From Escherichia coli (GTDB taxonomy: Bacteria; Pseudomonadota; Gammaproteobacteria; Enterobacterales; Enterobacteriaceae): a stretch of DNA of 64,000 bases. The stretch lies in assembly GCF_001677475.2 (NCBI RefSeq), contig NZ_CP015229.1. One strand, 5' to 3'. The position numbers and the translations under genes are program-made. Shown in pieces: positions 1 to 15,403 of the stretch. Each line of letters begins with the position of its first letter. The first letter of the stretch is position 1. The notes beneath the pieces are model-generated. The model did not search any database and was not told the origin of the DNA. It saw only the letters and a program-made list of their open reading frames with translations.

Positions 1-15
1 AGAAAATATTGAAAA

Positions 16-2088
16 TTATTGTGTGTAAATGTCTCCCTTTAAAAAGTCTGGCCAGTTTTTTTCAAAGTAAATACCGTTAATACACGGTTGCATACGTAAA
101 GACTTTACTTCGGTAATAAAAGAACCTTGCGAATATTGAATTGTTAATTTGTGATTTTTATCTTCAGCGAGTTCAGAGCGAAAACGCCATTCTTCTTTTA
201 CGCCGCGACGAGTTTGTGGTAGGCATTTGCCTTGTGGATCAATAACCATCCGCGCCCCACGACTGCCGCCACCAGCATCAATATAATGCGTTAATTGTGT
301 TAATACCGCGGCAGAAGTCAGCGCCATATGCCGCCACATAAACAGCTCGGAAACTTCACCCACATGTTTGATTGCCAATCCATGCCGTTGGACAAATTCG
401 TTCAATAGCAGGGCATCGCGAGTGGCGCGTCGGACTTTATCGGCATGGCAAATAAATCCCGCATAGTCAGACATTCGTGCCTGAATTTTTTCTCTCACAA
501 CCGACAACGGCATCCCGGTCCCGTTATCGTGCGCCTGAGTAATGATCTCTCTTATAGAAGCCAGTGCCGGAGCTGCCAGCTGTGCTATATCTCCATCAAT
601 ATTCCGCTTTTGCGTGCAACCAATAAAACGTGCCAGACGCACGGCAAAAACCTGCCCGGCATTCAATGCCGCACCACCAGGGCGAGTGACGCCGTGTGTG
701 CCAGCAACTTCCCCCACTGCAAAACAACCGGGCAGAGATGTTTGTCCCCAGATATCCACTTCAATGCCGCCATTCATATGCTGATTATTCATGGCAAACT
801 GCAATGGCTGCGTGGTGAGATCGTAACCGTGCATCTTATACAGCGAGATAGACAGCGGATTCATTCGTTGCAGTCGTTCGATGGGCGATGGCGCCAGGGC
901 GTCGTTATTTTCCAGATACGCGCGAACGTCGTCGTCCAGTCGTTCTAATGAGAATGGCAGGTCACCCGGCACAGGTTCAGGATTGCGATTGAAATCCATA
1001 AATACCTGACGCCCTGATTGCTGCTCTTGCGCCACCGCCATATCTAACAAGCTGGAGCCAAAATCCATTACCCGCGTGGCGTGGAACGGCCACTGATAGC
1101 CTTTACGGAAGATGTTTGAAGCCAGCTCCTGGGTGGTGCGATAGTAATCTGCGAGGAAGTTATACTCGTTGCCCTCGGCATCCACGGAATAGATATATGG
1201 GATCACTTGTACATAGGTGCCGGACAAATTCCACGGAAACGTGCTGCGCGGCGTGCCTATACCAAACTGGCTTTCGGTCAGATTAGTTAGTGTCAGGCCT
1301 TCCTCCAGCGCCAGCCCCAGCGAGCCAAAACATTTGTGTGGGTACACACTGTCGCGATAAAGCTCGCCCGGCCCGCCTGTTGCCAGTACCACATTGGGCG
1401 CAGTCACAATTGCCAGCCCCCACGGGTTATGGGCGCGGGAACCGGTTGCGAGGATAGCCCCGGCCACACGATCTTCGCCGTTTTCACCGCGTTGATGCAG
1501 CAGTTTAATCACCGTTGCACTGGTCAACAGTGGGATGGCGAGGCGCTGCACTTCTTCGAGCAATACTTTCACCATCAGACGAGAAGTGCGCGGCCCACAG
1601 GAGGTTGCGCGTCCGGCTTCGTCATGGTCGGTCTGATAACGGAGAATTGCACCATAGCGATCTTCCGGTAATTCCAGACCGAGATATTGCAGCCCGCCAA
1701 GGGTATGTAGGGAACCGACCGCTTCGACATACGCCGTGTCGTGATCCATCGCACCGCCGCTCGCCAGTGCTTCAGCAAGTTTTGCGAAGTTATCGCCGTT
1801 GCCCGCCGTTGCGGCGGTAAACAGCGTCTGTTTATCGGAACCGGAGCAGGCCGATGTTCCCATGTATAACCCGGCGGTGGCGATTAGCACATTTTGCTGG
1901 CGACGTTTCAGTTCAACCGCCGCACGTAATCCTGCCGCGCCGCTACCAACGACCAGAGCATCTGTTTGCCAGAGCGGGTAATCAACACCGTCCACCGTGA
2001 CAATTGACGTTGGCTCTGCTGACACAAAACCCTTCGGGAAAGTGACGTGCGTCAGCGCATCGAGGATGGCGTCATCAGTCTGGCTCAT
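16..2088 (-). CDS. FAD-dependent oxidoreductase, fumarate reductase/succinate dehydrogenase flavoprotein-like (KstD/TcuA-type), 690 aa
   Basis: Full-length ORF; Rossmann motif VVGSGAAG about 45 aa from the N-terminus followed by a GTSACSGS motif; start overlaps the stop of the upstream CoA-transferase gene by 4 bp. Confidence 0.7.
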   Translation of the reverse strand: MSQTDDAILDALTHVTFPKGFVSAEPTSIVTVDGVDYPLWQTDALVVGSGAAGLRAAVELKRRQQNVLIATAGLYMGTSACSGSDKQTLFTAATAGNGDNFAKLAEALASGGAMDHDTAYVEAVGSLHTLGGLQYLGLELPEDRYGAILRYQTDHDEAGRATSCGPRTSRLMVKVLLEEVQRLAIPLLTSATVIKLLHQRGENGEDRVAGAILATGSRAHNPWGLAIVTAPNVVLATGGPGELYRDSVYPHKCFGSLGLALEEGLTLTNLTESQFGIGTPRSTFPWNLSGTYVQVIPYIYSVDAEGNEYNFLADYYRTTQELASNIFRKGYQWPFHATRVMDFGSSLLDMAVAQEQQSGRQVFMDFNRNPEPVPGDLPFSLERLDDDVRAYLENNDALAPSPIERLQRMNPLSISLYKMHGYDLTTQPLQFAMNNQHMNGGIEVDIWGQTSLPGCFAVGEVAGTHGVTRPGGAALNAGQVFAVRLARFIGCTQKRNIDGDIAQLAAPALASIREIITQAHDNGTGMPLSVVREKIQARMSDYAGFICHADKVRRATRDALLLNEFVQRHGLAIKHVGEVSELFMWRHMALTSAAVLTQLTHYIDAGGGSRGARMVIDPQGKCLPQTRRGVKEEWRFRSELAEDKNHKLTIQYSQGSFITEVKSLRMQPCINGIYFEKNWPDFLKGDIYTQ

Positions 2089-3626
2089 GCGTCCTCCATT
2101 GGCGTAAACAGGCTACTTTCCATCAGGCGCGGCTGGTTGATAATTGGACGGAAAGCCATGAACGGCAGAATGTCGCGGTCAATCTCCACGCCCGGCGCGA
2201 TTTCAATTAATTCAACGCCTTCTGCCGTTAACTGAAACACCGCGCGTTCAGTGATATACAACACTTCCTGACCGCTGTGCTGTGCGTAGGCGGCGCTAAA
2301 AGTGATTTTTTCCACCTGAGTAACCAGTTTAGGGATTTGACCTGACTGGGCGATATGCAAGCCATCTGGCGTTACATCAATCTTGCTGCCTTTGGCGTCG
2401 AACGTGCCGCAGAACACCACCTTACGGGCGTTTTGCGCAATTTCGAGAAATCCGCCGGGGCCAATCAGATTGCCATTGAGATGGGAGACGTTGACGTTAC
2501 CGTACTGATCCATCTCTCCCATGCCGAGGAAGGTGATATCGATCCCTCCGCCACTGTAGAACTCAAATTGATCGAGTGATGGAATAATGGCATCGGCGTT
2601 GCGGGCGCAGCCGAAAAACGCATCATCCAGCATCATACCGTTATGCACGCCTTGCTCGACGCTCAGCCATAAACTTTGGTAAGGCACGCCTTCGCGCAGC
2701 GCTACTCCTGGAATGCCGCCGGGAATACCAAAGCCAAAGTTGGTTGAAGCGCCAGCTACCAGTTCGCGTGCTGCCCGACGGGCAATCAGGCGACGTACCG
2801 GATGACTAACCAGTTCAATAGCGTCGTTAGAACTCAGACGGCGATGTTGGCCGCTGATGGTCAGGTCGTAACCGCCAAGATAGGTTTGTGGCTGTTCGCG
2901 GTGTTCAACGATGCCATCAACCAGAATGCCCGGTAATTTGACTCGGCGTGGTTCAATCGCGCCAGCTTCCAGCACATCGCGTACCTGTACAAACACTTTG
3001 CCGCCGCTGTTGTGTGCTGCCAGCGCCATGGAATAGCTATCCATATCAATCGCTTCTTCTTCAAGGCTGACGTTGCCCCGAGGATCGGCATAAGTGCCAC
3101 GCAAAATCGCGTAATCGACTTTGAAAGGGCGATAACGAAGTTTGGTTTCACCGTCGATTTCAATCAGTTCTACCAGGTCGTCGGTAGTGCATTCATTCGA
3201 CTTACCGCCGCCATTGCGTGGATCAACAAACGATCCCAGCCCAACGTGGGTAAAAAGCCCCGGACGTCCGGCGCCGATCTCCCGTAGCAGTGCCTGAATC
3301 ACGCCACCAGGAAAACAATAGGCTTCAATCGCGTTATTTTTTACCAGCGCCTGCATTTTGGGTGACCAGGTAAAGTGTCCGGCAATAATGCGTTTGAGCA
3401 TTTCAGCATGAGCGAAGCGGTTCGTGCCTTTGCAGTCGCGATCGCCAATGCCCAGCGAGTGGATTAATGTCAGATCGCGCGGGTGTCCGGTTTGCAGGAA
3501 GCGCGCTTCAATGGCTGCCAGAATATGGTCGGCTTCCACCATGCCGCCGCCGTTACCGCTAATGGCAATGGTTGCGCCATCCTGAATTTGCGCCGCCAGT
3601 GCCTCGGCGGTTGTTATCTTACGCAT
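2085..3626 (-). CDS. Family I CoA-transferase (acetyl-CoA hydrolase/transferase-like, fused subunits), 513 aa
   Basis: ORF with N-terminal AISGNGGG and a central glycine-rich region typical of fused CoA-transferases; 9-bp spacing to the upstream gene. Confidence 0.7.
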   Translation of the reverse strand: MRKITTAEALAAQIQDGATIAISGNGGGMVEADHILAAIEARFLQTGHPRDLTLIHSLGIGDRDCKGTNRFAHAEMLKRIIAGHFTWSPKMQALVKNNAIEAYCFPGGVIQALLREIGAGRPGLFTHVGLGSFVDPRNGGGKSNECTTDDLVELIEIDGETKLRYRPFKVDYAILRGTYADPRGNVSLEEEAIDMDSYSMALAAHNSGGKVFVQVRDVLEAGAIEPRRVKLPGILVDGIVEHREQPQTYLGGYDLTISGQHRRLSSNDAIELVSHPVRRLIARRAARELVAGASTNFGFGIPGGIPGVALREGVPYQSLWLSVEQGVHNGMMLDDAFFGCARNADAIIPSLDQFEFYSGGGIDITFLGMGEMDQYGNVNVSHLNGNLIGPGGFLEIAQNARKVVFCGTFDAKGSKIDVTPDGLHIAQSGQIPKLVTQVEKITFSAAYAQHSGQEVLYITERAVFQLTAEGVELIEIAPGVEIDRDILPFMAFRPIINQPRLMESSLFTPMEDA

Positions 3627-3635
3627 ACAATTTCC

Positions 3636-4412
3636 TTAGTGATTATGGAAGCTCACGCTACTTTTTTCGGCAAATGCCTGCGTCGCCTGCTGGCAATCCT
3701 GAGTGGCGGACATTAATCCAGCCAGTAACTGGTGTGGGTATTCAGCGTGTTTATTTTCCAGTGCCAGAATCAGCTGCTTAATATGCGCCAGTGCCACCGG
3801 ACCACATTTTTCCAGCTGCGCTAACTGGTTCGCCATCCAGCTTTCCACCTGTTCTTTTTCTACTACTTCATCAATTAAATTCGCCGCCTGGGCTTCATGC
3901 GCCGTCAGACGTTTACCTAGCATCAGCATCTGGCGACCGACCACTGGGCCGACCTGATTAATCACGCGTTCAATGCCCATCCAGCCAGGCACCATGCCGA
4001 GCATGACTTCCGGGTTAGAAAATTTCGCGCTGGGGCGAGCGATTCGAATATCGCAGCACAAGGCAAGTTCAATACCGCCGCCGATGGTATGACCGTTGAG
4101 ATTCGCAACCGTTAATTGCGGTAAATTGCGCAGGCGATTAAAAACGTCATTGCCGCGTTTAATCCATTTTCTGCCCATATCTAATGGCGAATAGGCCGAC
4201 CACGATTTAATATCACCGCCCGCACAAAAGAATTTATCGCCGATTGCCGTTAATTCGACTAATCGTAATGTGGTGTCGTTTTCAATTTCATTTAAATAAT
4301 GGTCGAGAGATTCAATCATCTCTTCGTTAATAGCATGACATTTCTCTTCACGGTTCAACGTCAGGCGGCAGGAAGCCGCCGCTCTGCTGAACAGAACGGG
4401 TTGGTCACTCAT
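3636..4412 (-). CDS. Enoyl-CoA hydratase/isomerase (crotonase fold), 258 aa
   Basis: ORF with crotonase-like motifs (FCAGGDI, HTIGGGIELAL). Confidence 0.75.
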   Translation of the reverse strand: MSDQPVLFSRAAASCRLTLNREEKCHAINEEMIESLDHYLNEIENDTTLRLVELTAIGDKFFCAGGDIKSWSAYSPLDMGRKWIKRGNDVFNRLRNLPQLTVANLNGHTIGGGIELALCCDIRIARPSAKFSNPEVMLGMVPGWMGIERVINQVGPVVGRQMLMLGKRLTAHEAQAANLIDEVVEKEQVESWMANQLAQLEKCGPVALAHIKQLILALENKHAEYPHQLLAGLMSATQDCQQATQAFAEKSSVSFHNH

Positions 4413-4421
4413 GATTATTCC

Positions 4422-5264
4422 TTAGCAATAATTCGCGATGCGATCGACGCTAATATCCAGCGTGTTGTTAATATCTTTCTGCCACCAGTACGGTGAGAAT
4501 ATTTCCAGTTCAATAGCGCCATTAAATCCGGCGTTTTCAACCAGTCGACGAATTGACGGAATATTTATCACGCCATCTCCCGGCATTCCCCGGTCATTGA
4601 CCAGATCGGTGGTCGGCACTAACCAGTCGGAAACATGAAACGCGAGAATACGTTTTCCGGCGCGCAGGAGCTGGCTGGCCAGATCCGGATCCCACCAGAC
4701 ATGGTAAACATCCACAGCCACGCCGAGGCCAAATTCGCCATCGGGATCGAGTTCATCACACCAGTCCAGCGCCTGGCGTAACGTGCACAGGCAAGAGCGA
4801 TCGGCGGCGGTCATTGGGTGCAGTGGCTCCAGCGCAATCGGCACGCCAACGTCTTTCGAATGTGGCAGTAACTGGCGTATCCCTTGTTTCACCTGTTCCC
4901 GTGCTTCATACAGATCTTTTGTGCCCTGCGGTAACCCGCCAACCACCTGCATATAACAGGCGGCGTTCAGCACCGCTGCGTCGTCCAGCGCCCGGCGGTT
5001 ATCATCAATTGCCAGTTTGCGTTCCGCCAGCGTCGGCGCGGTGTAGTAGGTGCTACGGCATAAACCGGAAACGCGCATGTTATTGACGGCAAGCTGGCGG
5101 GCGATCTGCTGAAGATCTTCACCCTGCAACTCTCTGCGCCAGGGGGCGATCGCACCGATACCGCGTGCGGCACAGGCATCAATAATGGCGGGTAGCGGCG
5201 TTTTATAGCCCAGTGTTGCGGTATTGATACTGAATAAATCCGGGCGTTGTAACAGATCTCTCAT
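4422..5264 (-). CDS. Sugar phosphate isomerase/epimerase (xylose isomerase-like TIM barrel), 280 aa
   Basis: ORF whose translation resembles the AP-endonuclease-2/xylose-isomerase-like TIM-barrel family. Confidence 0.65.
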   Translation of the reverse strand: MRDLLQRPDLFSINTATLGYKTPLPAIIDACAARGIGAIAPWRRELQGEDLQQIARQLAVNNMRVSGLCRSTYYTAPTLAERKLAIDDNRRALDDAAVLNAACYMQVVGGLPQGTKDLYEAREQVKQGIRQLLPHSKDVGVPIALEPLHPMTAADRSCLCTLRQALDWCDELDPDGEFGLGVAVDVYHVWWDPDLASQLLRAGKRILAFHVSDWLVPTTDLVNDRGMPGDGVINIPSIRRLVENAGFNGAIELEIFSPYWWQKDINNTLDISVDRIANYC

Positions 5265-5273
5265 GATTCAGCC

Positions 5274-6065
5274 TCAGAAGCGCGGCATACTTAAGCCGCC
5301 GTCGATGGCGACCGCCTGACCACAGGTGTAAATCAGTTTACCTTCCGCCATCGCGCGGACGGTGGAGGCAATATCAGCCGGATAACCCCAACGTCCCCAC
5401 GGCACCAGACCTTTGGCAATCAGTTCGTCGTAATAAGCCGTTGCTGGAATAGTCATATCGGTTTTGATGAGACCAGGGCGCACTTCATAGACGCCAATTT
5501 GTTCGTTGCAAAGGCGAGCAGCAAACAGACGAGCAGCGGCAGAAACGGCGGTTTTGGCAATTGTGTATTCGCCGCGATTCATCGCCAGCATGATGGCGTT
5601 GATGGAACTGACAAAAATAATTGAGCGGTGCGGGAATTCTGTTTCTGGTTTTGGCTGTGCGAGCAGACGTTTACTGAATGCCTGTGCAAGGAAGAACGGT
5701 GCGCGGGTGTTAATGGCAATATTTTGGTCGAAGCTGTCTGGTTCCAGGTCGAGAAGGTCACCGCGTTTTTTCACTGAAATGCCTGCGTTGTTGAGCAGGC
5801 AGTCCAGACGTCCCCACTGGTTTTGCGCTGCGTCGAGCATCTCTTCATGCAGGGAGAGATCGCCAACATCGGCAGGGAAGCAAATCACTTCCACGCCTTC
5901 CGCCAGACATTCTTGTTGTGTGACATGTAATTTTTCAACGCTATCGGCATCCGGACGATCATTAATCAGCAGATTAAATCCGCCACGCGCAAGCTCCAGC
6001 GCACAGCCCTTTCCAATACCACGAGCGGCTCCGGTAATCACGGCAACAGGACGAGTGGATTTCAT
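5274..6065 (-). CDS. Short-chain dehydrogenase/reductase (SDR), 263 aa
   Basis: N-terminal TGAARGIG cofactor motif and YxxxK catalytic motif (YTIAK); first gene of the five-gene operon. Confidence 0.8.
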   Translation of the reverse strand: MKSTRPVAVITGAARGIGKGCALELARGGFNLLINDRPDADSVEKLHVTQQECLAEGVEVICFPADVGDLSLHEEMLDAAQNQWGRLDCLLNNAGISVKKRGDLLDLEPDSFDQNIAINTRAPFFLAQAFSKRLLAQPKPETEFPHRSIIFVSSINAIMLAMNRGEYTIAKTAVSAAARLFAARLCNEQIGVYEVRPGLIKTDMTIPATAYYDELIAKGLVPWGRWGYPADIASTVRAMAEGKLIYTCGQAVAIDGGLSMPRF

Positions 6066-6133
6066 ACAATAGCTCTCTTTTTTTGAATTTTGTTTCCTTA
6101 GTGATGATTAGCTTGCGACTGGAGGATAAAAAG

Positions 6134-6155
6134 ATCAACCATCTAGTTGGTTGAT
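6134..6155. promoter_or_regulatory. Perfect 8-bp inverted repeat ATCAACCA-tctagt-TGGTTGAT in the divergent SDR/TetR promoter region; candidate TetR operator
   Basis: Palindrome read directly from the sequence; position between divergently transcribed regulator and operon. Confidence 0.4.
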
Positions 6156-6277
6156 ATGCGATGACGATCACAGGACATTTGATAACCTGATGAAAGTACA
6201 AGTTTTTGCCCTTTTTTCTGAAGCTGAAATCAAATCAGGTTATGATAGTCACCACGAAGAGGTCGTGGGGAAGCGTT

Positions 6278-6925
6278 ATGTATATTGATACCAGCAACGT
6301 ACAGAGCCTGAAGGAAAAGCTGCTGTTATGCGCGGTTAATGAATTTGCCGAATATGGTTATGAAGGGGCCAGGGTCGATAATATTGTTAAGTCTGCGGGG
6401 TGTAGTAAACAGACGGTTTATCACCACTTTGGTAATAAAGAAAATTTATTTATTGAAGTACTGGAATATACCTGGAACGATATTCGAAAAAAAGAAAAGG
6501 CCCTTGATTTCTCAGATCTTCCGCCACAAAAAGCCATTGAGAAAATTATTGATTTTACATGGGATTATTATATTGCTAATCCCTGGTTTTTAAAAATTGT
6601 GCATAGTGAAAATCAAAGTAAAGGTGTGCATTATGCAAAATCACAGCGTCTCTTAGAAATTAACCATGCGCACTTGCAGTTAATGGAATCCTTATTGGAG
6701 GAAGGGAAGAAACACAATATTTTTAAGCCAGATATCGACCCATTGCAGGTGAATATTAATATTGCTGCGCTTGGGGGATATTATTTGATCAACCAGCATA
6801 CGCTTGGCCTGGTTTATCACATCAGTATGGTTTCACCCCAGGCACTGGAAGCCAGACGTAAGGTCATCAAAGAGACGCTCCTTAGCTGGCTTTTGGTTGA
6901 CCCCTCATCTACCGCGCACGAATAA
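6278..6925 (+). CDS. TetR/AcrR-family transcriptional regulator (intact counterpart of the K-12 ytfA fragment, by recollection)
   Basis: N-terminal HTH region ([27 protein letters not shown]); ATG at 6278 preceded by a GGGGAAG Shine-Dalgarno-like sequence; the track ORF begins further upstream at a TTG. Confidence 0.75.
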
Positions 6926-7547
6926 AACTGCCATCCGGCTGACGGGTAAACAGGACCTGTTGATTATTCCCCGTATCAATGGTTAAGCCCGTCACCACGC
7001 CGCTGGCGTTCTGGCGGATTTTCACCATCTGCCCGTTTTGCAAATTACTCAGCGGCTTATCCGCGCCTTCTACCTGCGCCATTGCATAGACATCGGTAGC
7101 GGGCAGTCCGTGGTCGCGGAACAGCTGCGCCATCGTTTTACCGGGTTCGACACGGTAAGAGCGCCATTGATTATCAATTCCGCTATCTGGCTGGAATGGT
7201 TGCGTTTGGGTGGTTTGCGGCTGCTCTTCTGGCTGGCCTTCCTGTATTGGTTCTGGAGCGACCGGGGCCACCTGATCAGGATCATTTTGTGGCGTAACTA
7301 GCTGCGCCCGCAGCTGTTCTTCTGTCGGCAGTTGTGATTGCGACTGAATATCTAACTGCGCTTCACGCGTCACCACCGGCGCGTTGGGCGTATCATCAGA
7401 TGGAAGCAGAAATCCGACCACCAATACAATGGCGGCAATAATGATCCCCCGACGATGCATCGGCGGCAGCGGGTCCATGAAGCGAAAATTGTCCGGCGCG
7501 TGCCAGACTTTCTCCAGGGTTGGTTTTAGTTCAAAGCGCCCGGGCAT
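6909..7547 (-). CDS. ytfB: YtfB, OapA/LysM-domain cell-division-associated protein
   Basis: Translation matches the recalled YtfB (212 aa from MPGRFELKP); the track ORF is extended upstream. Confidence 0.85.
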
Positions 7548-7764
7548 GGTTTCCTCCTGCTCCGCGTCTTGTTCCTCAATCATAGCCTATGAATAAGCTA
7601 ACGCTATGATGTCCGTGGTAAACCCGCCTTTATTATATTCATACGGGATATTGCTATTGTTTCTTTTTCCCCGGGATTTGTCATCATTCCCGCGACAAAG
7701 TTTTACCCAAAGAAGTGTGGCTGATATGCTGCCCGCTACTTTATACCCTAAGAAAGGAAATACG

Positions 7765-8385
7765 ATGACCACCCCAACTTTTGACACCATCGAAGCGCAA
7801 GCAAGCTACGGCATTGGTTTGCAGGTAGGGCAACAACTGAGTGAATCTGGCCTGGAAGGGCTGCTGCCAGAAGCACTGGTTGCAGGCATTGCTGATGCGC
7901 TGGAAGGCAAACATCCGGCTGTTCCGGTTGATGTGGTGCACCGCGCGCTGCGTGAAATCCACGAACGCGCCGATGCCGTTCGTCGTCAGCGTTTCCAGGC
8001 GATGGCTGCTGAAGGTGTGAAATACCTGGAAGAAAACGCCAAAAAAGAAGGTGTAAATAGCACCGAATCTGGCCTGCAATTCCGCGTGATCAACCAGGGT
8101 GAAGGCGCAATTCCGGCACGTACCGACCGCGTTCGTGTTCATTACACCGGAAAACTGATCGACGGCACCGTGTTTGACAGCTCCGTCGCTCGCGGCGAGC
8201 CAGCTGAATTCCCGGTTAACGGCGTGATCCCTGGCTGGATTGAAGCACTGACTCTGATGCCGGTAGGTTCTAAATGGGAACTGACTATCCCGCAGGAACT
8301 GGCATATGGCGAGCGTGGCGCAGGCGCGTCCATCCCTCCGTTCAGCACCCTGGTGTTTGAAGTCGAACTGCTGGAAATCCTCTAA
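7765..8385 (+). CDS. fklB: FKBP-type peptidyl-prolyl cis-trans isomerase FklB
   Basis: 206-aa product starting [15 protein letters not shown] at 7765 inside the longer track ORF. Confidence 0.92.
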
Positions 8386-8692
8386 GCAGCGCATTCTGTT
8401 CCCCTCGAGCCAGAGGGGAGCAGGCATTCAGCAATAAACCCTTCAGTTTGCCAAACGGCGCTATTTTGTGTTGCAAAGACCCCGTAAGCGTGTATTTTTG
8501 TGAGCTGTTTCGCGTTATCACCGTGATATGACACTCACTTTAAACATAAAATTAACATTAGATCTAAATCTTAGTATTCATCCCGCGTATTGTTACCTAA
8601 TATCGATGAGTCCCGATACAGATTCGTCGTATCATAGACTGACTAAAGGCCGTAGAGCCTGAACAACACAGACAGGTACAGGAAGAAAAAAC

Positions 8693-10105
8693 ATGGTAGA
8701 TCAGGTAAAAGTCGTTGCCGATGATCAGGCTCCGGCTGAACAGTCGCTACGGCGCAATCTCACAAACCGACATATTCAGCTTATTGCCATTGGCGGTGCC
8801 ATTGGCACAGGGTTGTTTATGGGGTCCGGCAAAACGATTAGCCTTGCCGGGCCGTCGATCATTTTCGTTTATATGATCATTGGTTTTATGCTCTTTTTCG
8901 TGATGCGGGCAATGGGGGAATTGCTGCTTTCGAATCTGGAATACAAATCTTTTAGTGACTTCGCTTCCGATTTACTCGGGCCGTGGGCAGGATATTTCAC
9001 CGGCTGGACTTACTGGTTCTGCTGGGTTGTAACCGGTATGGCAGACGTGGTGGCGATCACGGCTTATGCTCAGTTCTGGTTCCCCGATCTCTCCGACTGG
9101 GTCGCCTCGCTGGCGGTGATAGTGCTGCTGCTGACGCTCAACCTCGCCACCGTGAAAATGTTCGGTGAGATGGAGTTCTGGTTTGCGATGATCAAAATCG
9201 TCGCCATTGTGTCGCTGATTGTCGTCGGCCTGGTCATGGTGGCGATGCACTTTCAGTCACCGACCGGTGTGGAAGCGTCATTCGCGCATTTGTGGAATGA
9301 CGGCGGCTGGTTCCCGAAAGGTTTAAGTGGCTTCTTTGCCGGATTCCAGATAGCGGTTTTCGCTTTCGTGGGGATTGAGCTGGTAGGTACAACAGCTGCG
9401 GAAACCAAAGATCCAGAGAAATCACTGCCACGCGCGATTAACTCAATTCCGATCCGTATCATTATGTTCTACGTCTTCGCGCTGATTGTGATTATGTCCG
9501 TGACGCCGTGGAGTTCGGTAGTCCCGGAGAAAAGCCCGTTTGTTGAACTGTTCGTGTTGGTGGGTCTGCCTGCTGCCGCCAGCGTGATCAACTTTGTGGT
9601 GCTGACCTCTGCCGCTTCTTCCGCTAACAGCGGCGTCTTCTCTACCAGTCGTATGCTGTTTGGTCTGGCGCAGGAAGGTGTGGCACCGAAAGCGTTCGCT
9701 AAACTCTCTAAGCGCGCAGTACCCGCGAAAGGGCTGACCTTCTCTTGTATCTGTCTGCTCGGCGGCGTGGTGATGCTGTATGTGAATCCCAGCGTGATTG
9801 GCGCGTTTACGATGATTACAACCGTTTCCGCGATTCTGTTTATGTTCGTCTGGACGATTATCCTTTGCTCGTACCTGGTGTATCGCAAACAGCGTCCGCA
9901 CCTGCATGAGAAATCAATCTACAAGATGCCGCTCGGCAAGCTGATGTGCTGGGTATGTATGGCATTCTTTGTGTTCGTGGTCGTGCTGCTGACACTGGAA
10001 GATGATACCCGCCAGGCGCTGCTGGTTACCCCGCTGTGGTTTATCGCTCTGGGGCTGGGCTGGTTGTTTATTGGTAAGAAGCGGGCTGCTGAACTGCGGA
10101 AATAA
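8693..10105 (+). CDS. cycA: D-serine/D-alanine/glycine transporter CycA (APC family)
   Basis: 470-aa multi-pass membrane ORF; synteny. Confidence 0.95.
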   Translation: MVDQVKVVADDQAPAEQSLRRNLTNRHIQLIAIGGAIGTGLFMGSGKTISLAGPSIIFVYMIIGFMLFFVMRAMGELLLSNLEYKSFSDFASDLLGPWAGYFTGWTYWFCWVVTGMADVVAITAYAQFWFPDLSDWVASLAVIVLLLTLNLATVKMFGEMEFWFAMIKIVAIVSLIVVGLVMVAMHFQSPTGVEASFAHLWNDGGWFPKGLSGFFAGFQIAVFAFVGIELVGTTAAETKDPEKSLPRAINSIPIRIIMFYVFALIVIMSVTPWSSVVPEKSPFVELFVLVGLPAAASVINFVVLTSAASSANSGVFSTSRMLFGLAQEGVAPKAFAKLSKRAVPAKGLTFSCICLLGGVVMLYVNPSVIGAFTMITTVSAILFMFVWTIILCSYLVYRKQRPHLHEKSIYKMPLGKLMCWVCMAFFVFVVVLLTLEDDTRQALLVTPLWFIALGLGWLFIGKKRAAELRK

Positions 10106-10149
10106 CCGCATTATCATGCTGGATGGCGCAATGCCATCCAGCTTTTAGA

Positions 10150-10812
10150 TCACTCACCCGCCAGTGCGCGCGGGAACAGCACATTATTTTCCAGACTAAT
10201 GTGATCCATCAGGTCATCAATCAATTCATTGATACCGTTATACATCGCTTTCCAGGTGGTGCAGGCTTCCGGCGGCGGTGTGACATTATTGGTGGTGTGT
10301 TTAATCACTTCCAGCAGTTCGCCCGCTTCATCGTGCTCGCTTTCCATTACGCTGATTGGCCCCATTGCCTGGCTGCCCATGCCTTGTTTGATCATCGGGA
10401 AGAGGATCTGCTCTTCTTTCATCATGTGGCTGGAAAGCTCTTCATGCAGCATAGTCAGGTATTTTGTCAGCCCTTTTGGCACGCTCGGTTTGTCGGCGTG
10501 AACGCGCTCGACTTTAGTCGCTTGCAGGATCAGCTCCGGCAGTTGCTCGCGGTGACGATCGTGGTAGCGCACGATGATATGGTCGATGATTTCTGCCAGC
10601 GGGGCGCTACGCCAGTCTTTCTCAATCGGTTGTTCAGCAAGCTTTGCCAGCTCAGCTTCAATGACCTCAACATCCAGCTCTTTACGTGCCGCCGCACGCG
10701 CCAGCGTTTGCTTACCGCCGCAGCAGTAATCCATATCATATTTACGAAACAGCGCTGAAGCGCGAGGAATAGAGAGCGCCAGTTCACCTAAAGGTTGGTC
10801 GCGATAAGCCAT
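10150..10812 (-). CDS. ytfE: Iron-sulfur cluster repair di-iron protein YtfE (RIC)
   Basis: 220-aa ORF with hemerythrin-like motifs; synteny. Confidence 0.95.
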
Positions 10813-10838
10813 AGCTGATACCTCATTCTTAATAAGAT

Positions 10839-10861
10839 AAGATGTATTTTAAATGCATCTT
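10839..10861. promoter_or_regulatory. NsrR operator (AAGATGTATTT-t-AAATGCATCTT, 11-1-11 inverted repeat) upstream of ytfE
   Basis: Near-perfect match to the recalled NsrR consensus, about 27 bp upstream of the ytfE start codon. Confidence 0.7.
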
Positions 10862-10919
10862 TAAGGCGAATGCTATAACCCTTACGTAGCAGAGGCTTAT
10901 TTAACTCACAGCCAGCATG

Positions 10920-11894
10920 TCAACTTTCTGAGACAGATTCAGTTAAAGGTTTTTCCGGTTTTGCTCTGACTGCAATGACCACGCCAACCACTAACAGCGC
11001 GATACCGCTCAGCGTCATCAGCGGCGGCATTTGCTGGCGGAGTAAAAAGGTGTACAGCAAACCTGCCAGTGTTTCGAAAACAATCAGCGGCCCGAGAATC
11101 ACTGTCGGTAATCGCTGGCTGGCGACGTTCCAGCAGAGTGCGCCGACCCATGAGCAAAGCACGGCTATCGCAATCATCAGACTAATAAACACCAGCGGGC
11201 GGGGGCCAAAGGGTAGGGAGAAGTCCGGCGTTTGCGTATTCAGCCAGTAACAAGCGACGAGATAGCCGATAAGTGAAACCGGCAGTGTGACCAGCGCCTG
11301 CGCCGTTGCCCACATCATCGGATGTTTGTCGGGATTTTCCCGCAGCCAGCGGGCGTTGCGCAGGGCATACCATGCCCAGCAGACCACGGAAACTAACGCC
11401 AGCACGATGCCAGAGGTATAACGTGCCCAGTCAAAATCGGGGAGTCCGTGGTTTAACTCAGCAATATTCACGCACGCCAGGCCGATGCCAATACAAATCA
11501 GTGCCGGGGCGAGTCTTCCCCACGCGAGTTTGCCGTCGCGCTGGCTATAAAGCAGATTGGCAAAGACAGGAATCACCACCGGCAGGGTGCCGATAATCAT
11601 CGTGGAAACAGGCGCGCCAGTACGTTGAATGGCACTGGCAAGGCAGAAGTAATAAATGAGGTTGCCCATCATAGTGAGCATCAAGGCGGTAAGCCAGTCC
11701 CGACGCGCCAACTGACGCAAACGCACGCGTCCCAGCCAGGCAATGGGTAGCGCAATTAACCCTAACGCCAGATAACGCCCCATCGACTGCAACATCGCCG
11801 GGTATTCCGGCACAATCAACGGCCCGACAAAAATAAGCCCCCACATCAACCCTGCTAACAGGGCGTACAGCACGCCGCTAATCATTACTGGCAT
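10920..11894 (-). CDS. ytfF: Inner-membrane EamA/DMT-family transporter YtfF
   Basis: Hydrophobic ORF; synteny; exact start uncertain. Confidence 0.85.
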   Translation of the reverse strand: MPVMISGVLYALLAGLMWGLIFVGPLIVPEYPAMLQSMGRYLALGLIALPIAWLGRVRLRQLARRDWLTALMLTMMGNLIYYFCLASAIQRTGAPVSTMIIGTLPVVIPVFANLLYSQRDGKLAWGRLAPALICIGIGLACVNIAELNHGLPDFDWARYTSGIVLALVSVVCWAWYALRNARWLRENPDKHPMMWATAQALVTLPVSLIGYLVACYWLNTQTPDFSLPFGPRPLVFISLMIAIAVLCSWVGALCWNVASQRLPTVILGPLIVFETLAGLLYTFLLRQQMPPLMTLSGIALLVVGVVIAVRAKPEKPLTESVSES

Positions 11895-11992
11895 CCATTG
11901 ATCTGTCAGAAGAAAGTTCAGGAAGCAGACATGATTGCTCCCGGCATCCCGTCATTATCAGAGAGGATGCGGGAGGATGCCACTTTAATTAA

Positions 11993-12853
11993 CTAGTTAT
12001 TAACATTAAAAAGATTGCTTACGCTTTCGGCTAACGTTGTCGTCGGGCGACCAATCAGTTTACTCAGCGTTTTGCTGTCATCAAACAGACCGCCTTTTGA
12101 CGCGCCAACGTCAGAATCCGCCAGCATATCCGCCAGTCCGTCGGGCAGTCCGACGCTTTTCAGCGCAGCGGCGAAATCGGCTTCGCTCAGATTTTGATAG
12201 GTAACCTGTTTGCCGCTCTGTTTGGTCAGCTCTGCCGCTAACTGTGTCAACGTCCAGGCGCTGTCGCCCGCCAGTTCGTAAACCTTGCCTTCGTGACCGG
12301 CTTCGCTAATCACGCGCGAGGCAGCGGCTGCATAATCTGCCCGCGTTGCTGAGGCAATTTTGCCATTGCCCGCCGCACCGATAAATACGCCGTGTTCCAC
12401 TGCTGCCGGGGCGCTGGCGAGGTAGTTTTCGGTGTACCAGCCGTTGCGCAGAAGGGTGTAAACGATGCCAGAATCAGCCAGCATTTTCTCCGTCTCGATG
12501 TGCTCATCGGCGAGGCCGAGCGGGGAGGTATCTGCATGTAGCAGGCTGGTATAAGCGATAAATTTCACGCCAGCCGTCTTTGCGGCATTAATAACATTAC
12601 GATGCTGCGGGGCACGTTGACCCACTTCGCTGGAAGAGATCAGCAGTAGTTTTTCCACTCCCTGAAGTGCAGATGTCAGTGCGGCTTCATCGCCGTAGTC
12701 AGCCTGACGCACGGTAATGCCTTGTGCTGCCAGGGCCTGGGCTTTTGCCGGATTACGAACGATAGCCACTATTTGGCTGGCAGGAACAGTTTTCATCAAG
12801 GATTCAATAACATAGTGACCAAGTTGGCCAGTGGCACCAGTAATAGCGATCAT
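11993..12853 (-). CDS. qorB: NAD(P)H:quinone oxidoreductase QorB (YtfG), NmrA-like
   Basis: 286-aa ORF with N-terminal ITGATGQLG Rossmann motif. Confidence 0.9.
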   Translation of the reverse strand: MIAITGATGQLGHYVIESLMKTVPASQIVAIVRNPAKAQALAAQGITVRQADYGDEAALTSALQGVEKLLLISSSEVGQRAPQHRNVINAAKTAGVKFIAYTSLLHADTSPLGLADEHIETEKMLADSGIVYTLLRNGWYTENYLASAPAAVEHGVFIGAAGNGKIASATRADYAAAASRVISEAGHEGKVYELAGDSAWTLTQLAAELTKQSGKQVTYQNLSEADFAAALKSVGLPDGLADMLADSDVGASKGGLFDDSKTLSKLIGRPTTTLAESVSNLFNVNN

Positions 12854-12941
12854 GGGAAGTCTCCATCGTTTTGTCTTGTGTTTAAATACGCTAACACCTA
12901 AACTTACTTTTAGTAAGTACGCACAAAAAGGTAAGTATGAA

Positions 12942-13322
12942 ATGAGTCAGGTTAGCCTGTCGCAACAACTGAAAGAGGGAAATCTCTTTGCGGAACAGTG
13001 CCCGTCGCGCGAGGTGTTGAAACACGTCACCAGCCGTTGGGGGGTATTGATTCTGGTGGCGCTACGCGAAGGCACTCATCGCTTTAGCGACCTGCGGCGC
13101 AAAATGGGCGGGGTGAGTGAAAAGATGCTTGCGCAGTCGTTACAGGCGCTAGAGCAGGATGGTTTTCTTAACCGTATAGCGTATCCGGTGGTGCCGCCGC
13201 ATGTGGAATATAGCCTCACGCCGTTGGGCGAGCAGGTGAGCGAAAAGGTTGCTGCACTGGCGGACTGGATTGAGTTGAATTTGCCCGAGGTGTTGGCGGT
13301 GCGGGATGAACGTGTGGCATAA
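12942..13322 (+). CDS. ytfH: HxlR-family transcriptional regulator YtfH
   Basis: 126-aa product from the ATG at 12942; divergent from qorB. Confidence 0.85.
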   Translation: MSQVSLSQQLKEGNLFAEQCPSREVLKHVTSRWGVLILVALREGTHRFSDLRRKMGGVSEKMLAQSLQALEQDGFLNRIAYPVVPPHVEYSLTPLGEQVSEKVAALADWIELNLPEVLAVRDERVA

Positions 13323-13323
13323 C

Positions 13324-13425
13324 TGCCGGATGCGCTGCGCTTATCTGGTCTACGGTGCATGGCTTGTAGGGCGGATAAGATGCGCCAGCATCGCATCCGC
13401 CAATAAATGCCGGATGCGGTTGATG
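13324..13425. repeat. REP/BIME palindromic repeat cluster
   Basis: GCCGGATGCG...CGCATCCGGC-type palindromic units in the ytfH/cpdB intergenic region. Confidence 0.7.
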
Positions 13426-13450
13426 ATTTATAGGCCGAAAAAGAAGTGTA

Positions 13451-15403
13451 TTACTTACTCAAATCCACCTGATAAATCGCAAACCCGATATCATCGGTCG
13501 CGACTTTATTCATCGGATATTGCCCTTTCTCTTTAATAAACGCTGCGGCTTTATCTGATGGAGAGGTTTCGAAACGGATATCCAGTTTCTTATCGCCAGC
13601 AATCGGTGCTAAACGCCAGTTGTTATCTGCCGCCGGGTGAATTTCCCCCGCACGTTTCGACTCATCAGCAATCCACGCTGCCAGCACCGAGCGGTTCTCA
13701 TCCGGTGAAGCAAAAGCGATATGGCTGTCGCCCGTACCAGCAAATTTGCCGCCGTAAGCGCGATAGTTATTGGTGGCAACGAGGAACATGGCGTTCGGAT
13801 CAATGGGTTTACCGTTAAAGGTCAGGTTCTTAATCCGCTCTGCATTGGCATTAACCACCTGACATTCACCGTCATAACGGGCGGGTTGGGTAACATCAAT
13901 CTGATAATTCACACCATCAATAACATCAAAGTTATAAGTGCGGAAACCATCCCAGTTGATGAGTGACTGTGGTTTCGTGCTGTTAGGATCAATCTGGTTA
14001 AACTGTCCGGCGGAGCACTCCAGCCACTCTTTCACCTCTTTACCGCTGGCTTTCACCACAATCAGCGTATTGGGGTAGAGATAAAGATCGGCGGCATTAC
14101 GGAAGGTCAACTGGCCTTTTTCCACCTCCACATAGCTTGCCGGGTCATTTTTGCGACCACCAACTTTAAACGGTGCGGCAGCTGAAAGCACCGGCAGTTT
14201 TGCCAGATCCGGATCGCCCTGAATGTAATGTTCGACATACGCTTTTTGCGCGTTGTTCACGACTTGCACGGTCGGATCGTCCTGCACCAGCGCCAGATAG
14301 CTATACATATTGTCGGCAGATTTACCGATTGGCTTGCTGACAAACTGGCGTGTGGCATCGTGATCGGCTTTGAGTGTTTCTACCAGCTTGCTATCTTCCG
14401 CCGCGAGGGATTTTTTATTAGCGATGTCGTAAATCGGCCGTGCTTCCGCTTTCGCCTGCATCACCTGCCATTTACCGCTGTCATTACTGAGTTACAAGTC
14501 GACCACACCAAGATGATCGCCCCACATGCCCGGCATTACCGCCGGAACACCATTCAGCGTGCCTTTCGCGATATCAGCCCCTTCGATATCAGCAAAATCT
14601 TTACCTGGGAAAACGGCGTGAGCATGGCCAAACATAATGGCGTTAACGCCCGGAATTTCACTGAGGTAATAAACTGAGTTTTCCGCCATCACTTTATACG
14701 GATCGGCAGACAGCCCGGAATGCGCCAGAACGACAACGAGATCGGCACCTTTCTCACGCATTTCAGGCACGTATTTGCGCACAGTTTCTGTTATATCGTT
14801 AACGGTGACTTTGCCGGACAAATTGGCTTTATCCCACCCCATAATCTGCGGCGGCACCACGCCAATATAGCCAATCTTTAACGTCTGTTTTTTTCCGTCT
14901 TTATCGACCACTTCGGTGTCTTTAATTAAATACGGTGTAAACATGGGCTGTTTGGTTTTTGCGTCGATGACGTTGGCATTTACATAAGGGAATTTCGCTC
15001 CCGCCAGCGCATTTTTCAGGTAATCCAGACCGTAGTTAAACTCGTGGTTGCCAAGCGTGCCGACGGTATAGTCCAGCGTATTTAATGCCTTATAGACCGG
15101 GTGAATATCGCCTGCTTTTAAACCTTTCGCCGACATGTAATCTGCCAGCGGACTCCCCTGAATCAAATCGCCGTTATCGACCAGTACGCTGTTTTTCACT
15201 TCATTGCGGGCATCGTTAATCAGGCTTGCGGTACGTACCAGTCCGAATTTTTCCGTAGCGGTGTCTTTGTAATAATCGAAATCCATCATGTTGCTATGCA
15301 GATCAGTGGTTTCCATGATACGCAGATCGACCGTCGCTGCATTTACACTGGCGGCAATCAGCGTGGCCAGGAGCGTTGCGCTAAACTTAATCATCAGGGA
15401 CAT
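13451..15403 (-). pseudogene. cpdB: cpdB (2',3'-cyclic-nucleotide 2'-phosphodiesterase / 3'-nucleotidase) interrupted by an in-frame TAA
   Basis: Two same-frame ORFs (14492..15403 and 13451..14464) separated only by a stop codon at 14492..14494 (minus strand); together they span the full-length protein. Confidence 0.85.

Follow-up and report, generated by a model that had tools for sequence, protein, structure and literature searches.

Here we show that the gene cluster at positions 16–6,925 of the window (the whole stretch of Escherichia coli DNA analysed, 64,000 nt of contig NZ_CP015229.1) is a real, well-conserved operon of six to seven genes, which in the model we propose is repressed by a TetR-family regulator. 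Our best explanation, a tentative one that is plausible though short of probable, is that it would serve the catabolism of an imported carboxylate, most likely a sugar-derived acid of the keto-, deoxy- or uronic type, by way of two enzyme modules that share a flavoprotein hub.

Layout, conservation and control of the operon

Five genes listed as open reading frames run in one direction on the minus strand (16–6065). From the operon's first gene onwards they encode a classical short-chain dehydrogenase (SDR; 263 aa, 5274–6065), a xylose-isomerase-like TIM barrel (Pfam AP_endonuc_2; 280 aa, 4422–5264), a crotonase-family enoyl-CoA hydratase/dehydratase (258 aa, 3636–4412), a fused family-I CoA-transferase of the YdiF / propionate-CoA-transferase / FadX type (513 aa, 2085–3626) and a flavoprotein of the SdhA/FrdA/NadB superfamily (690 aa, 16–2088; Pfam FAD_binding_2, 2e-28), whose gene we call FAD. 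The three upstream spacers are exactly 9, 9 and 9 bp, in each of which the stop codon leads into a ribosome-binding site of the GGA type (TGAGGCTGAATCATG, TAAGGAATAATCATG, TAAGGAAATTGTATG), and the CoA-transferase and FAD genes overlap by 4 bp (ATGA). The compact layout with a divergent TetR gene described in the first-pass annotation is thus borne out by the reading frames and by the protein families, which were confirmed by profile and structure matches as well as the Pfam annotation of their counterparts in Klebsiella and Salmonella. Furthermore, dN/dS is 0.03–0.10 for all six genes against their E. coli, Klebsiella and Salmonella orthologues; such strong purifying selection indicates that the genes are real.

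The suspicion that the operon continues past the left edge also proved correct. Positions 1–15 (minus strand) begin the spacer between the FAD gene and the operon's last gene, an MFS transporter, which lies 92 nt downstream in Klebsiella, Salmonella and E. coli FDAARGOS_497 (WP_001033613.1, starting 92 nt 3' of the FAD stop codon).

Among 5426 complete E. coli genomes, 3112 carry the cluster. It has a genome-like G+C content, and Escherichia, Klebsiella and Salmonella all have it at one site, rplI-ytfB. MG1655 lacks it and has yjfZ and the ytfA pseudogene at the locus, just as the annotation stated, together with ytfB. A decayed SDR remnant of 102 bp persists in K-12. Because of the common site, the genome-like G+C and this remnant, we conclude that the cluster is ancestral to the Escherichia-Salmonella-Klebsiella group and was deleted in K-12, so the earlier label "accessory", which suggests acquisition, does not fit.

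The TetR gene (plus strand, 6278–6925) is the intact counterpart of ytfA, whose K-12 fragment matches only 6521–6925. Its start is most likely the ATG at 6278, giving 215 aa in agreement with the RefSeq annotation of an orthologue; the first in-frame TTG, at 6206, was set aside in its favour. The gene converges on ytfB, with which its 3' end shares 17 bp. Orthologues bear TetR_N and TetR_C_29 domains, and matches to named TetR regulators are weak, the best being the acyl-CoA-sensing Bacillus FadR. A divergent control region (6066–6277) separates the SDR gene from the TetR gene; for it eight intergenic regions were aligned, and it harbors a 22-bp inverted repeat, ATCAACCATCTAGTTGGTTGAT (6134–6155), that occurs once in the window with 0 chance matches expected; no confident sigma-70 match was found within 6066–6277. 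The core of the palindrome is exact in the E. coli and Salmonella loci, the palindrome is kept in E. albertii and Klebsiella, and Pseudescherichia has related TCAAC(T/C)A...T(A/G)GTTGA palindromes. We therefore regard it as a candidate operator through which, we infer, TetR represses the operon. Both the TetR gene and the palindrome are kept across cluster types, including those lacking CoA enzymes, which argues that the TetR effector is not a CoA ester.

Enzymes of the operon

The SDR scores 419 bits against NF009386, a name-only family, which is over the cut-off, and also resembles glucose 1-DH, FabG and KduD models. It carries the motifs TGAARGIG, D36, NNAG, S153/154 and Y167-x3-K171, and since Asp36 is typical of NAD+-preferring catabolic SDRs, it is probably NAD+-preferring. 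The TIM barrel matches PDB 3qc0/3ju2 (SMc04130, function unknown) at 3e-86 and 7vpf at 6e-61; its NCBIfam matches are weak (IolO 5-keto-L-gluconate epimerase, 7e-7; hydroxypyruvate isomerase, 1e-5), and the Klebsiella orthologue bears PF01261. We propose it as a putative metal-dependent keto-sugar (or keto-sugar acid) isomerase, epimerase or dehydratase.

The CoA-transferase is a paralogue of YdiF encoded in a separate operon. It shares the full-length fused architecture of YdiF, Clostridium propionate CoA-transferase and S. aureus FadX, and matches YdiF (PDB 2ahu) across residues 6–508 (8e-114, 384 bits), with the catalytic Glu (YdiF VE333TG, here VE324QG) and the GXGGF motif (GPGGF at 389) both kept; against the NCBIfam FadX equivalog it reaches 382 bits, under the 750-bit cut-off. 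The crotonase matches short-chain enoyl-CoA hydratase models (1e-43) and, among solved structures, 3-hydroxypropionyl-CoA dehydratase best (5zai, 2.7e-39), and has both catalytic Glu residues (GGGIE115, NPE135) and the FCAGGD oxyanion motif. Both enzymes resemble ordinary short-chain enzymes and could take a small C3-C4 by-product rather than the main substrate. A precedent for such a pair acting on a free acid is AcuN-AcuK, in which a CoA-transferase and a crotonase hydrate a free enoate with recycled CoA (PMC5651017). There too the CoA-transferase adjoins the crotonase with no ligase, acyl-CoA dehydrogenase or thiolase, and the E. coli crotonase is likewise nearest to 3-hydroxypropionyl-CoA dehydratase and short-chain hydratases; unlike AcuN-AcuK, the E. 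coli pair is embedded among genes for an SDR, a TIM barrel and an SdhA-like flavoprotein and for a transporter of the sugar-acid type.

The flavoprotein (AlphaFold model pLDDT 94) has SdhA/FrdA as its best PDB folds at 14–19% identity, with TM-scores of 0.63–0.68 (query-normalised) or 0.70–0.81 (target-normalised) and a Foldseek E of about 1e-31, and shares the four-domain fold and FAD_binding_2 domain of SdhA/FrdA/NadB. Aligned to E. coli FrdA with hhalign, it has, unlike SdhA/FrdA, neither the His that binds FAD covalently nor the catalytic His/Arg of the cap domain (H44→S79, H232→G276, R287→S345/S346), but retains the FAD-domain His/Arg pair with which FrdA/NadB bind the substrate carboxylate (H355→H437, R390→R469). 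It extends roughly 90 residues past the FrdA C-terminus and has no signal peptide, and its locus encodes no Fe-S partner or membrane subunit such as SdhA/FrdA systems possess. The family, collected as 418 representatives at E<=1e-30, has invariant motifs of its own (GSDKQT, TDHD, WNLSGxY, KGYQWPF), and all AFDB50 neighbours are nameless. We place the protein in an uncharacterised SdhA-like family.

Separable modules in related clusters

Gene neighbourhoods were compared by tblastn on 80 loci with up to 10 kb of flank and home-made ORF calling, a sample rather than a full census. SDR, TIM barrel and FAD genes, with or without a Gfo/Idh/MocA gene, occur together, unaccompanied by genes for CoA enzymes, in Brenneria, Pseudescherichia, Phytobacter, Mangrovibacter, Lentisphaeria and Opitutia; the enterobacterial orthologues (47–74%, 51–70% and 58–60% identity, respectively) stand with a related TetR gene. 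Conversely, CoA-transferase, crotonase and FAD genes form single-strand operons in Rhizobium, Rhizobiales, Rhodobacteraceae, Devosia and Comamonadaceae, alongside a glucose-type ABC transporter (binding protein matching PDB 4r2b at 3.6e-161; GtsA-like, 1e-104), two GMC oxidoreductases, an aldehyde dehydrogenase, a Gfo protein resembling levoglucosan dehydrogenase and a PfkB resembling KDG kinase. The SDR is the commonest neighbour of the flavoprotein family in both of its clades. The flavoprotein is the hub common to two separable modules. In a neighbour-joining tree the enteric clade adjoins the Brenneria SDR-TIM-FAD cluster, and the adjacent crotonase and CoA-transferase genes, placed between TIM and FAD, may be an insertion into an older SDR-TIM-FAD cluster.

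These distributions give only partial support to the first-pass scheme of CoA-thioester activation followed by hydration and redox steps: the gene content is as the annotation described, but a linear CoA-ester route does not match the comparison of clusters. SDR, TIM and FAD occur lacking CoA enzymes, and the E. coli operon has neither acyl-CoA dehydrogenase nor thiolase. A self-contained version resembling beta-oxidation, in which the CoA-transferase activates, the flavoprotein forms the enoyl-CoA in place of an acyl-CoA dehydrogenase, the crotonase hydrates it, the SDR is a 3-hydroxyacyl-CoA dehydrogenase and a housekeeping thiolase ends the route, would draw on the intact CoA-transferase, crotonase and FabG-like SDR, on translational coupling of CoA-transferase and FAD through the ATGA overlap, on the FadR match, weak as it is, and on the co-occurrence of CoA-transferase, crotonase and FAD in alpha-, beta- and deltaproteobacteria. 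We consider it unlikely, as betaproteobacterial and Desulfobacterales clusters hold a true acyl-CoA dehydrogenase beside the flavoprotein (with EtfAB in the former), the TIM barrel would have no role, and we know of no SdhA/NadB-type flavoprotein that acts on CoA thioesters.

The same betaproteobacterial genes, an acryloyl-CoA-reductase-like dehydrogenase plus EtfAB, could instead point to an anaerobic reductive electron sink, with carnitine respiration in E. coli (CaiB/CaiD/CaiA) and the acrylate pathway as analogues. Here a beta-hydroxy acid, once joined to CoA, would lose water at the crotonase, whose best solved relative is a dehydratase, and the fumarate-reductase-like flavoprotein would reduce the enoate or enoyl-CoA. 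In a distant anaerobe clade (36–41% identity), about 12 of ~35 loci place a flavoprotein of the OYE type or an OYE/Fe-S/GltD-like NAD(P)H oxidoreductase beside the FAD gene, and in one family member, P0148, OYE is fused directly to FAD, a layout typical of NADH-dependent enoate reductases. However, in E. coli the operon supplies neither an electron-donor module nor another electron-transfer partner for the flavoprotein; the flavoprotein's nearest relatives are in aerobes, beside GMC, ALDH and Gfo oxidases/dehydrogenases, and Asp36 suggests a catabolic SDR. We judge such an electron sink quite unlikely.

A proposed route for a sugar-derived acid

Returning to the imported carboxylate, the transporters argue for such a substrate, since all are of carboxylate-importing types: the E. 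coli and Klebsiella ones belong to the D-galactonate/ACS sugar-acid subfamily of the ExuT/DgoT type (WP_001033613.1 scores 315 bits against TIGR00893), the Brenneria cluster has an aromatic-acid:H+ symporter and the betaproteobacterial cluster a TRAP system. Transporters of the AAHS type, and some of the ACS type, accept aromatic acids as well. That the acid is sugar-derived, which we favour just as tentatively, is suggested by neighbouring genes and transporter families, no substrate being known in the flavoprotein family or among close TIM and SDR homologues.

Module 1 (SDR and TIM barrel) would act on the free acid, the SDR converting a secondary alcohol to a ketone with NAD+ and the metal-dependent TIM barrel isomerising, epimerising or dehydrating beside it. 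Such oxidise-eliminate chemistry is known from levoglucosan (Lgd), 3-keto-glycoside and inositol (Iol) pathways, in which a Gfo/Idh/MocA dehydrogenase is partnered by a TIM barrel resembling xylose isomerase. Sister clusters similarly combine SDR, Gfo/Idh/MocA dehydrogenase and TIM barrel, and alpha-type clusters carry a levoglucosan-dehydrogenase-like gene (308 bits; all such scores lie under curated cut-offs), whereas the known pathways have neither SdhA-like flavoprotein nor CoA enzymes. More specifically, SDR and TIM barrel might be analogues of KduD and KduI, taking a compound of the 5-keto-4-deoxyuronate type, released by lyases that act on pectin, alginate or glycosaminoglycans, to a 2-keto-3-deoxy acid and on to KdgK/Eda, with the CoA enzymes and flavoprotein handling a variant or side product. 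The SDR does match KduD models (1e-33), yet its 116 bits fall well under the cut-off of 339 and unrelated SDRs score equally; the TIM barrel's only named relatives perform aldose-ketose or epimerase reactions on keto acids; Phycisphaerae FAD clusters join the SDR to an aldolase resembling Eda, a PfkB resembling KDG kinase and a secreted beta-propeller of the BNR_4 type; alphaproteobacterial clusters put a KDG-kinase-like gene directly 3' of FAD; and the transporter is of the ExuT/DgoT subfamily. As E. coli already has kduI/kduD and the hub flavoprotein would gain no defined job, we judge this variant improbable.

In the broader two-module reading, module 2 (CoA-transferase and crotonase) would use CoA catalytically: acetyl-CoA or the product of the pathway itself would donate CoA to the acid, hydration or dehydration across C2-C3 would follow, and the CoA would then move on. 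The flavoprotein may dehydrogenate the C-alpha/C-beta bond, or catalyse the opposite reduction, next to a carboxyl or carbonyl held by His437/Arg469, with catalytic residues differing from those of fumarate reductase. The operon contains no kinase, aldolase or thiolase giving an exit to central metabolism. Another enterobacterium, Klebsiella michiganensis, degrades the sugar acid 2-deoxyribonate through CoA thioesters and likewise employs MFS transporters (PMC6365646), but its CoA synthetase, beta-hydroxyacyl-CoA dehydrogenase, thiolase, lactonase and glycerate kinase have no counterparts in the E. coli operon.

In keeping with the annotation's failure to recognise a named E. coli pathway, no named pathway emerged for the cluster: literature searches yielded no paper, and the curated models no entry, that gives the operon a function, and the names in NCBIfam and AFDB were generic. 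As part of the same tentative explanation, the flavoprotein would be a new SdhA-like enzyme joining two modules. Members of its family also occur in gene clusters for sugar use across many further bacteria.

Operon structure, local control and loss from K-12

An ORF scan of the window places five genes on the minus strand, encoding an SDR of 263 aa (5274-6065), a TIM barrel protein of 280 aa (4422-5264), a crotonase of 258 aa (3636-4412), a CoA-transferase of 513 aa (2085-3626) and a 690-aa flavoprotein (16-2088), with a divergent plus-strand TetR gene that encodes 215 aa from an ATG at 6278, a start supported by the RefSeq start of the orthologue, and ends at 6925. Three intergenic spacers are exactly 9 bp long, each stop codon continuing into a GGA ribosome-binding site, and an ATGA overlap joins the CoA-transferase and flavoprotein (FAD) genes. 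These features, together with dN/dS values of 0.03-0.10 for all six genes (measured against orthologues from E. coli FDAARGOS_497, Klebsiella oxytoca and Salmonella enterica), show that the genes are real and under selection and that their description in the first-pass annotation was accurate. A separate E. coli protein of 1078 aa (P0008) carries FAD_binding_2 and CoA_trans domains in one chain, a fusion that probably arose by loss of the ATGA stop/start junction.

The first-pass annotation had suspected that the operon runs on past the left edge of the window. Indeed, in FDAARGOS_497 the FAD gene is followed by an MFS transporter gene and then by yjfZ, and the operon therefore exceeds that edge. 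The transporter exists in two versions, 51% identical to each other and both of the D-galactonate/ACS subfamily (7646-8923 of the fetched locus L001 versus 12128-13405 of L003 and 12127-13404 of L004); the Klebsiella transporter is the 51%-identical counterpart of the FDAARGOS_497 one, and the locus of E. coli SCPM-O-B-8794 (L009) does not have the FDAARGOS-type version.

Control of the operon is predicted to be local. TetR_N and TetR_C_29 domains are present in orthologues of the regulator, and an N-terminal helix-turn-helix, a divergent gene and an intergenic palindrome as candidate operator are what would be expected of a TetR-family local repressor. The palindrome (22 bp, 6134-6155) lies between the SDR and TetR genes, occurs once in the window and is kept in Escherichia, Salmonella and Klebsiella; furthermore, related palindromes precede the TetR genes in more distant types of cluster. 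On the minus strand, a terminator scan flags the same element as a hairpin resembling a terminator, with a T-run after it. A sigma-70 promoter scan of the intergenic region returned no confident match. The TetR gene has a G+C content of 0.40, below both the 0.51 of the window and the 0.49-0.55 range of the five enzyme genes, and its 3' end overlaps that of the convergent ytfB by 17 bp (6909-6925), as is likewise annotated in FDAARGOS_497.

Among 5426 complete E. coli genomes, 3112 carry at least 80% of window positions 1-7000 at 92-94.4% identity, ST131, LF82, O121 and ETEC strains among them; the remaining genomes hold just the part from about 6521 on. The same seven genes lie between rplI and ytfB in K. 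oxytoca and S. enterica. The corresponding locus of K-12 MG1655 consists of yjfZ, the ytfA pseudogene and ytfB, with a 102-bp remnant of the SDR gene (79% identical; 2588-2689 of the MG1655 locus L092, matching 14875-14976 of L001) between yjfZ and ytfA. Direct comparison resolves two deletions in K-12 with this remnant between them, and its position beside the ytfA fragment implies that the cluster was removed by those two deletions and that the leftover decayed. The cluster is thus ancestral at the rplI-ytfB site and was lost rather than gained. Origin as a horizontal island was ruled out by the shared site in three genera, flanks free of mobile genes and a G+C content (0.49-0.55) around the 0.51 of the window. 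In many genomes that lack the cluster, O157:H7 included, the ytfA fragment (equivalents of 6523-7000) is split by an IS609 / IS200-IS605 element encoding tnpA and a TnpB/InsQ RNA-guided nuclease.

Measured against an E. coli allele, dS in the cluster is 0.13-0.33. Among the 5426 genomes, the closest backbone (8000-15000) is 97.5% identical and the closest operon (1-7000) 94.4%; the source of the window thus looks like a somewhat divergent Escherichia lineage, with an operon allele that has diverged further than the sequence around it.

The five enzymes

The SDR holds all classical motifs (TGAARGIG at 11, NNAG at 92, S153/154, Y167 and K171), and its Asp36 suggests a preference for NAD+. The TIM barrel protein belongs to its family by PF01261 on the orthologue and by matches to PDB 3qc0/3ju2 (3e-86) and 7vpf (6e-61); 3qc0 and 3ju2, the latter being SMc04130, are structural-genomics entries without an assigned function, no characterised enzyme is among the protein's close homologues, and its matches to named NCBIfam families, of keto-acid epimerases and isomerases, are weak (7e-7 at best). 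Both catalytic glutamates (GGGIE115 and NPE135) and the oxyanion-hole motif FCAGGD at 62 are found in the crotonase, which matches hydratase models at 1e-43, short-chain hydratases and 3-hydroxypropionyl-CoA dehydratase being nearest. The CoA-transferase, a full-length family-I enzyme of the YdiF type, is a single fused alpha/beta chain, in line with the ~520 aa typical of such chains; its residues 6-508 align to 17-518 of YdiF (E 8e-114), E324 falls on the catalytic E333 that forms the enzyme-CoA thioester, and GPGGF at 389 corresponds to the GXGG(A/F) motif.

The 690-aa flavoprotein contains FAD_binding_2 (Pfam, 2e-28), and its predicted model (pLDDT 94) has the four-domain fold of SdhA/FrdA/NadB flavoproteins, with SdhA/FrdA as the nearest solved folds (14-19% identity, Foldseek E about 1e-31). 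Its active site departs from theirs. In a profile alignment to E. coli FrdA, H44, which carries the covalent 8-alpha-histidyl FAD, is replaced by Ser79 of a GTS79 motif, and the cap-domain residues H232 and R287 used in dicarboxylate chemistry give way to G276 and S345/S346, residues that do not vary within the new family. Since these cap-domain and covalent-flavin positions are replaced, the protein is not a fumarate, succinate or aspartate enzyme; all three substrates were ruled out on the missing cap-domain His/Arg. The FAD-domain pair His355/Arg390 of FrdA is retained as His437/Arg469, and the flavoprotein probably still anchors a carboxylate or carbonyl beside the flavin. No gene for an Fe-S protein was found in the operon by the ORF scan of the window or in the FDAARGOS_497 annotation.

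The flavoprotein family has 418 representatives at E<=1e-30. Fold searches of AFDB50 and the PDB gave no named close relative, and the AFDB50 neighbours, all unnamed, come from Proteobacteria, Firmicutes, Coriobacteriia, spirochaetes and an Asgard archaeon.

Gene neighbourhoods and the proposed route

A scan of species genomes yielded 80 flavoprotein loci, which were then analysed by tblastn, ORF clustering and a tree. Brenneria combines TetR, SDR (74%), TIM (70%) and FAD (59%) with an aromatic-acid-type MFS transporter and has no CoA genes. In Pseudescherichia, Phytobacter and Mangrovibacter the set is TetR, SDR, a Gfo/Idh/MocA dehydrogenase, TIM, MFS and FAD, and SDR/Gfo/TIM/FAD recurs in Lentisphaeria, Opitutia and a betaproteobacterium. 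About 20 alpha-proteobacterial loci hold a sugar ABC transporter, two GMC oxidoreductases, a Dabb protein, LacI, a levoglucosan-dehydrogenase-like Gfo (308 bits), FAD and a KDG-kinase-like PfkB (243 bits). In Phycisphaerae, FAD and PfkB accompany an OYE/Fe-S/GltD-like oxidoreductase, an SDR, an Eda-like aldolase and a BNR_4 protein; of two recurrent neighbours searched against Pfam, one matched BNR_4 and the other nothing.

Such KDG-kinase and aldolase neighbours would suit a KduI/KduD-like role for the SDR and TIM barrel proteins. That role seems very doubtful to us and leaves some genes of the operon unaccounted for. Moreover, unlike the enzyme of the 5-keto-4-deoxyuronate pathway, the SDR reaches only 116 bits to KduD models against a cut-off of 339, and the locus has no gene for a cupin, the class of the KduI isomerase. 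In a distant clade, about 12 loci also have an OYE-type protein beside the FAD gene, and such partners in anaerobes would fit a reductive electron sink, a reading that likewise strands some of the genes and that we hold to be improbable. A metagenomic protein of 1084 aa (P0148) has an OYE-like domain fused N-terminal to a family member.

The CoA pair, CoA-transferase plus crotonase, is not peculiar to E. coli. Within 10-kb loci it lies near FAD in Devosia, two Rhodobacteraceae, a betaproteobacterium, whose cluster adds TRAP, MaoC, acyl-CoA dehydrogenase, EtfAB and TIM, and a Desulfobacterales genome. Several rhizobial 10-kb loci had a crotonase at their extreme edge, and longer flanks were fetched, revealing three operons with every gene on one strand. 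That of Rhizobium sp. CG5 runs from LacI through CoA-transferase, crotonase, aldehyde dehydrogenase, binding protein, two permeases, ATPase and two successive GMC genes to FAD; the fetched Comamonadaceae stretch holds Gfo, CoA-transferase, crotonase, aldehyde dehydrogenase, binding protein, permeases, ATPase and two GMC genes, with FAD and PfkB further downstream on the same contig (L043); and a Rhizobiales genome adds Dabb and Gfo to the same core. The binding protein that these operons encode is similar to PDB 4r2b (3.6e-161) and to GtsA-like glucose-binding proteins (1e-104). The 10-kb loci had suggested that the GMC and CoA pairs are mutually exclusive alternatives in alpha-proteobacteria, an idea refuted by the longer flanks, which put the CoA pair upstream in the same operons.

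These recurrent contexts make the flavoprotein the hub of two separable partnerships, SDR with TIM and CoA-transferase with crotonase, which the E. coli operon unites. In the tree, the enteric clade stands beside the three-gene cluster of Brenneria; this position and the gene order suggest to us that the CoA pair entered by insertion between TIM and FAD.

The first-pass annotation had favoured a linear scheme, in which a substrate is activated as its CoA ester and then undergoes hydration and redox steps. The scheme keeps some standing but is in our judgement unlikely: sister clusters exist without CoA genes, two lineages have true acyl-CoA dehydrogenases alongside the flavoprotein, and the TIM barrel protein is left without a role. 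Furthermore, neither an acyl-CoA dehydrogenase nor a thiolase gene is present in the operon of the window, E. coli, Klebsiella or Salmonella, and the genes do not make up a beta-oxidation cycle.

Instead, we tentatively propose an imported sugar-derived carboxylate as the presumed input. The SDR and TIM barrel proteins would generate a ketone and catalyse an isomerisation, epimerisation or dehydration beside it; the CoA pair would add or remove water across C2-C3 with recycled CoA, as AcuN-AcuK do when they hydrate acrylate by CoA-transferase and crotonase (PMC5651017); and the flavoprotein would perform a C-alpha/C-beta redox step. What the substrate is, in which order the steps follow, which way the flavoprotein reaction runs and what accepts its electrons are inferences. 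A bolder reading, which we consider less likely than not, is that the 690-aa protein founds an unstudied branch of the succinate-dehydrogenase/aspartate-oxidase superfamily and that this branch carries out the common step of an undescribed carbohydrate-acid route, in which catalytic CoA, handled by the CoA-transferase and crotonase, replaces the classical sugar-acid dehydratase or kinase. If true, most E. coli would have the pathway, as would K. oxytoca-group strains, some Salmonella, rhizobia, roseobacters and PVC bacteria, and it would have been overlooked because K-12 deleted the operon.

Relation to known systems and significance

The deoxyribonate acyl-CoA pathway of Klebsiella michiganensis, whose cluster encodes a CoA synthetase, a beta-hydroxyacyl-CoA dehydrogenase, a thiolase and a glycerate kinase, was rejected as a match since its gene set differs from that of the operon (PMC6365646). 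Literature searches by ytfA/yjfZ, RefSeq accessions, 7VPF/3QC0/3JU2/SMc04130, product names and aldonyl-CoA names, and the GapMind gaps paper, turned up no paper on the operon, nor did we find a curated family model or named structure that would give it a function. Because every enzyme falls in a known superfamily, the system is not categorically new; what is new is a catabolic operon for an orphan substrate with an uncharacterised flavoprotein branch.

The operon is strongly conserved and present in more than half of complete E. coli genomes, and its substrate has never been assigned because the model strain does not have it. With a local TetR repressor, a clear candidate operator, a transporter and soluble enzymes, the question is tractable by ordinary genetics. 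Knowing the substrate would reveal a further nutrient niche, one that sets many E. coli, commensal as well as pathogenic, apart from the K-12 and O157 lineages. It would also assign a role to a flavoprotein family whose hundreds of diverged members span Proteobacteria, PVC bacteria and Firmicutes; a CoA-cycling solution to sugar-acid chemistry might emerge as well.
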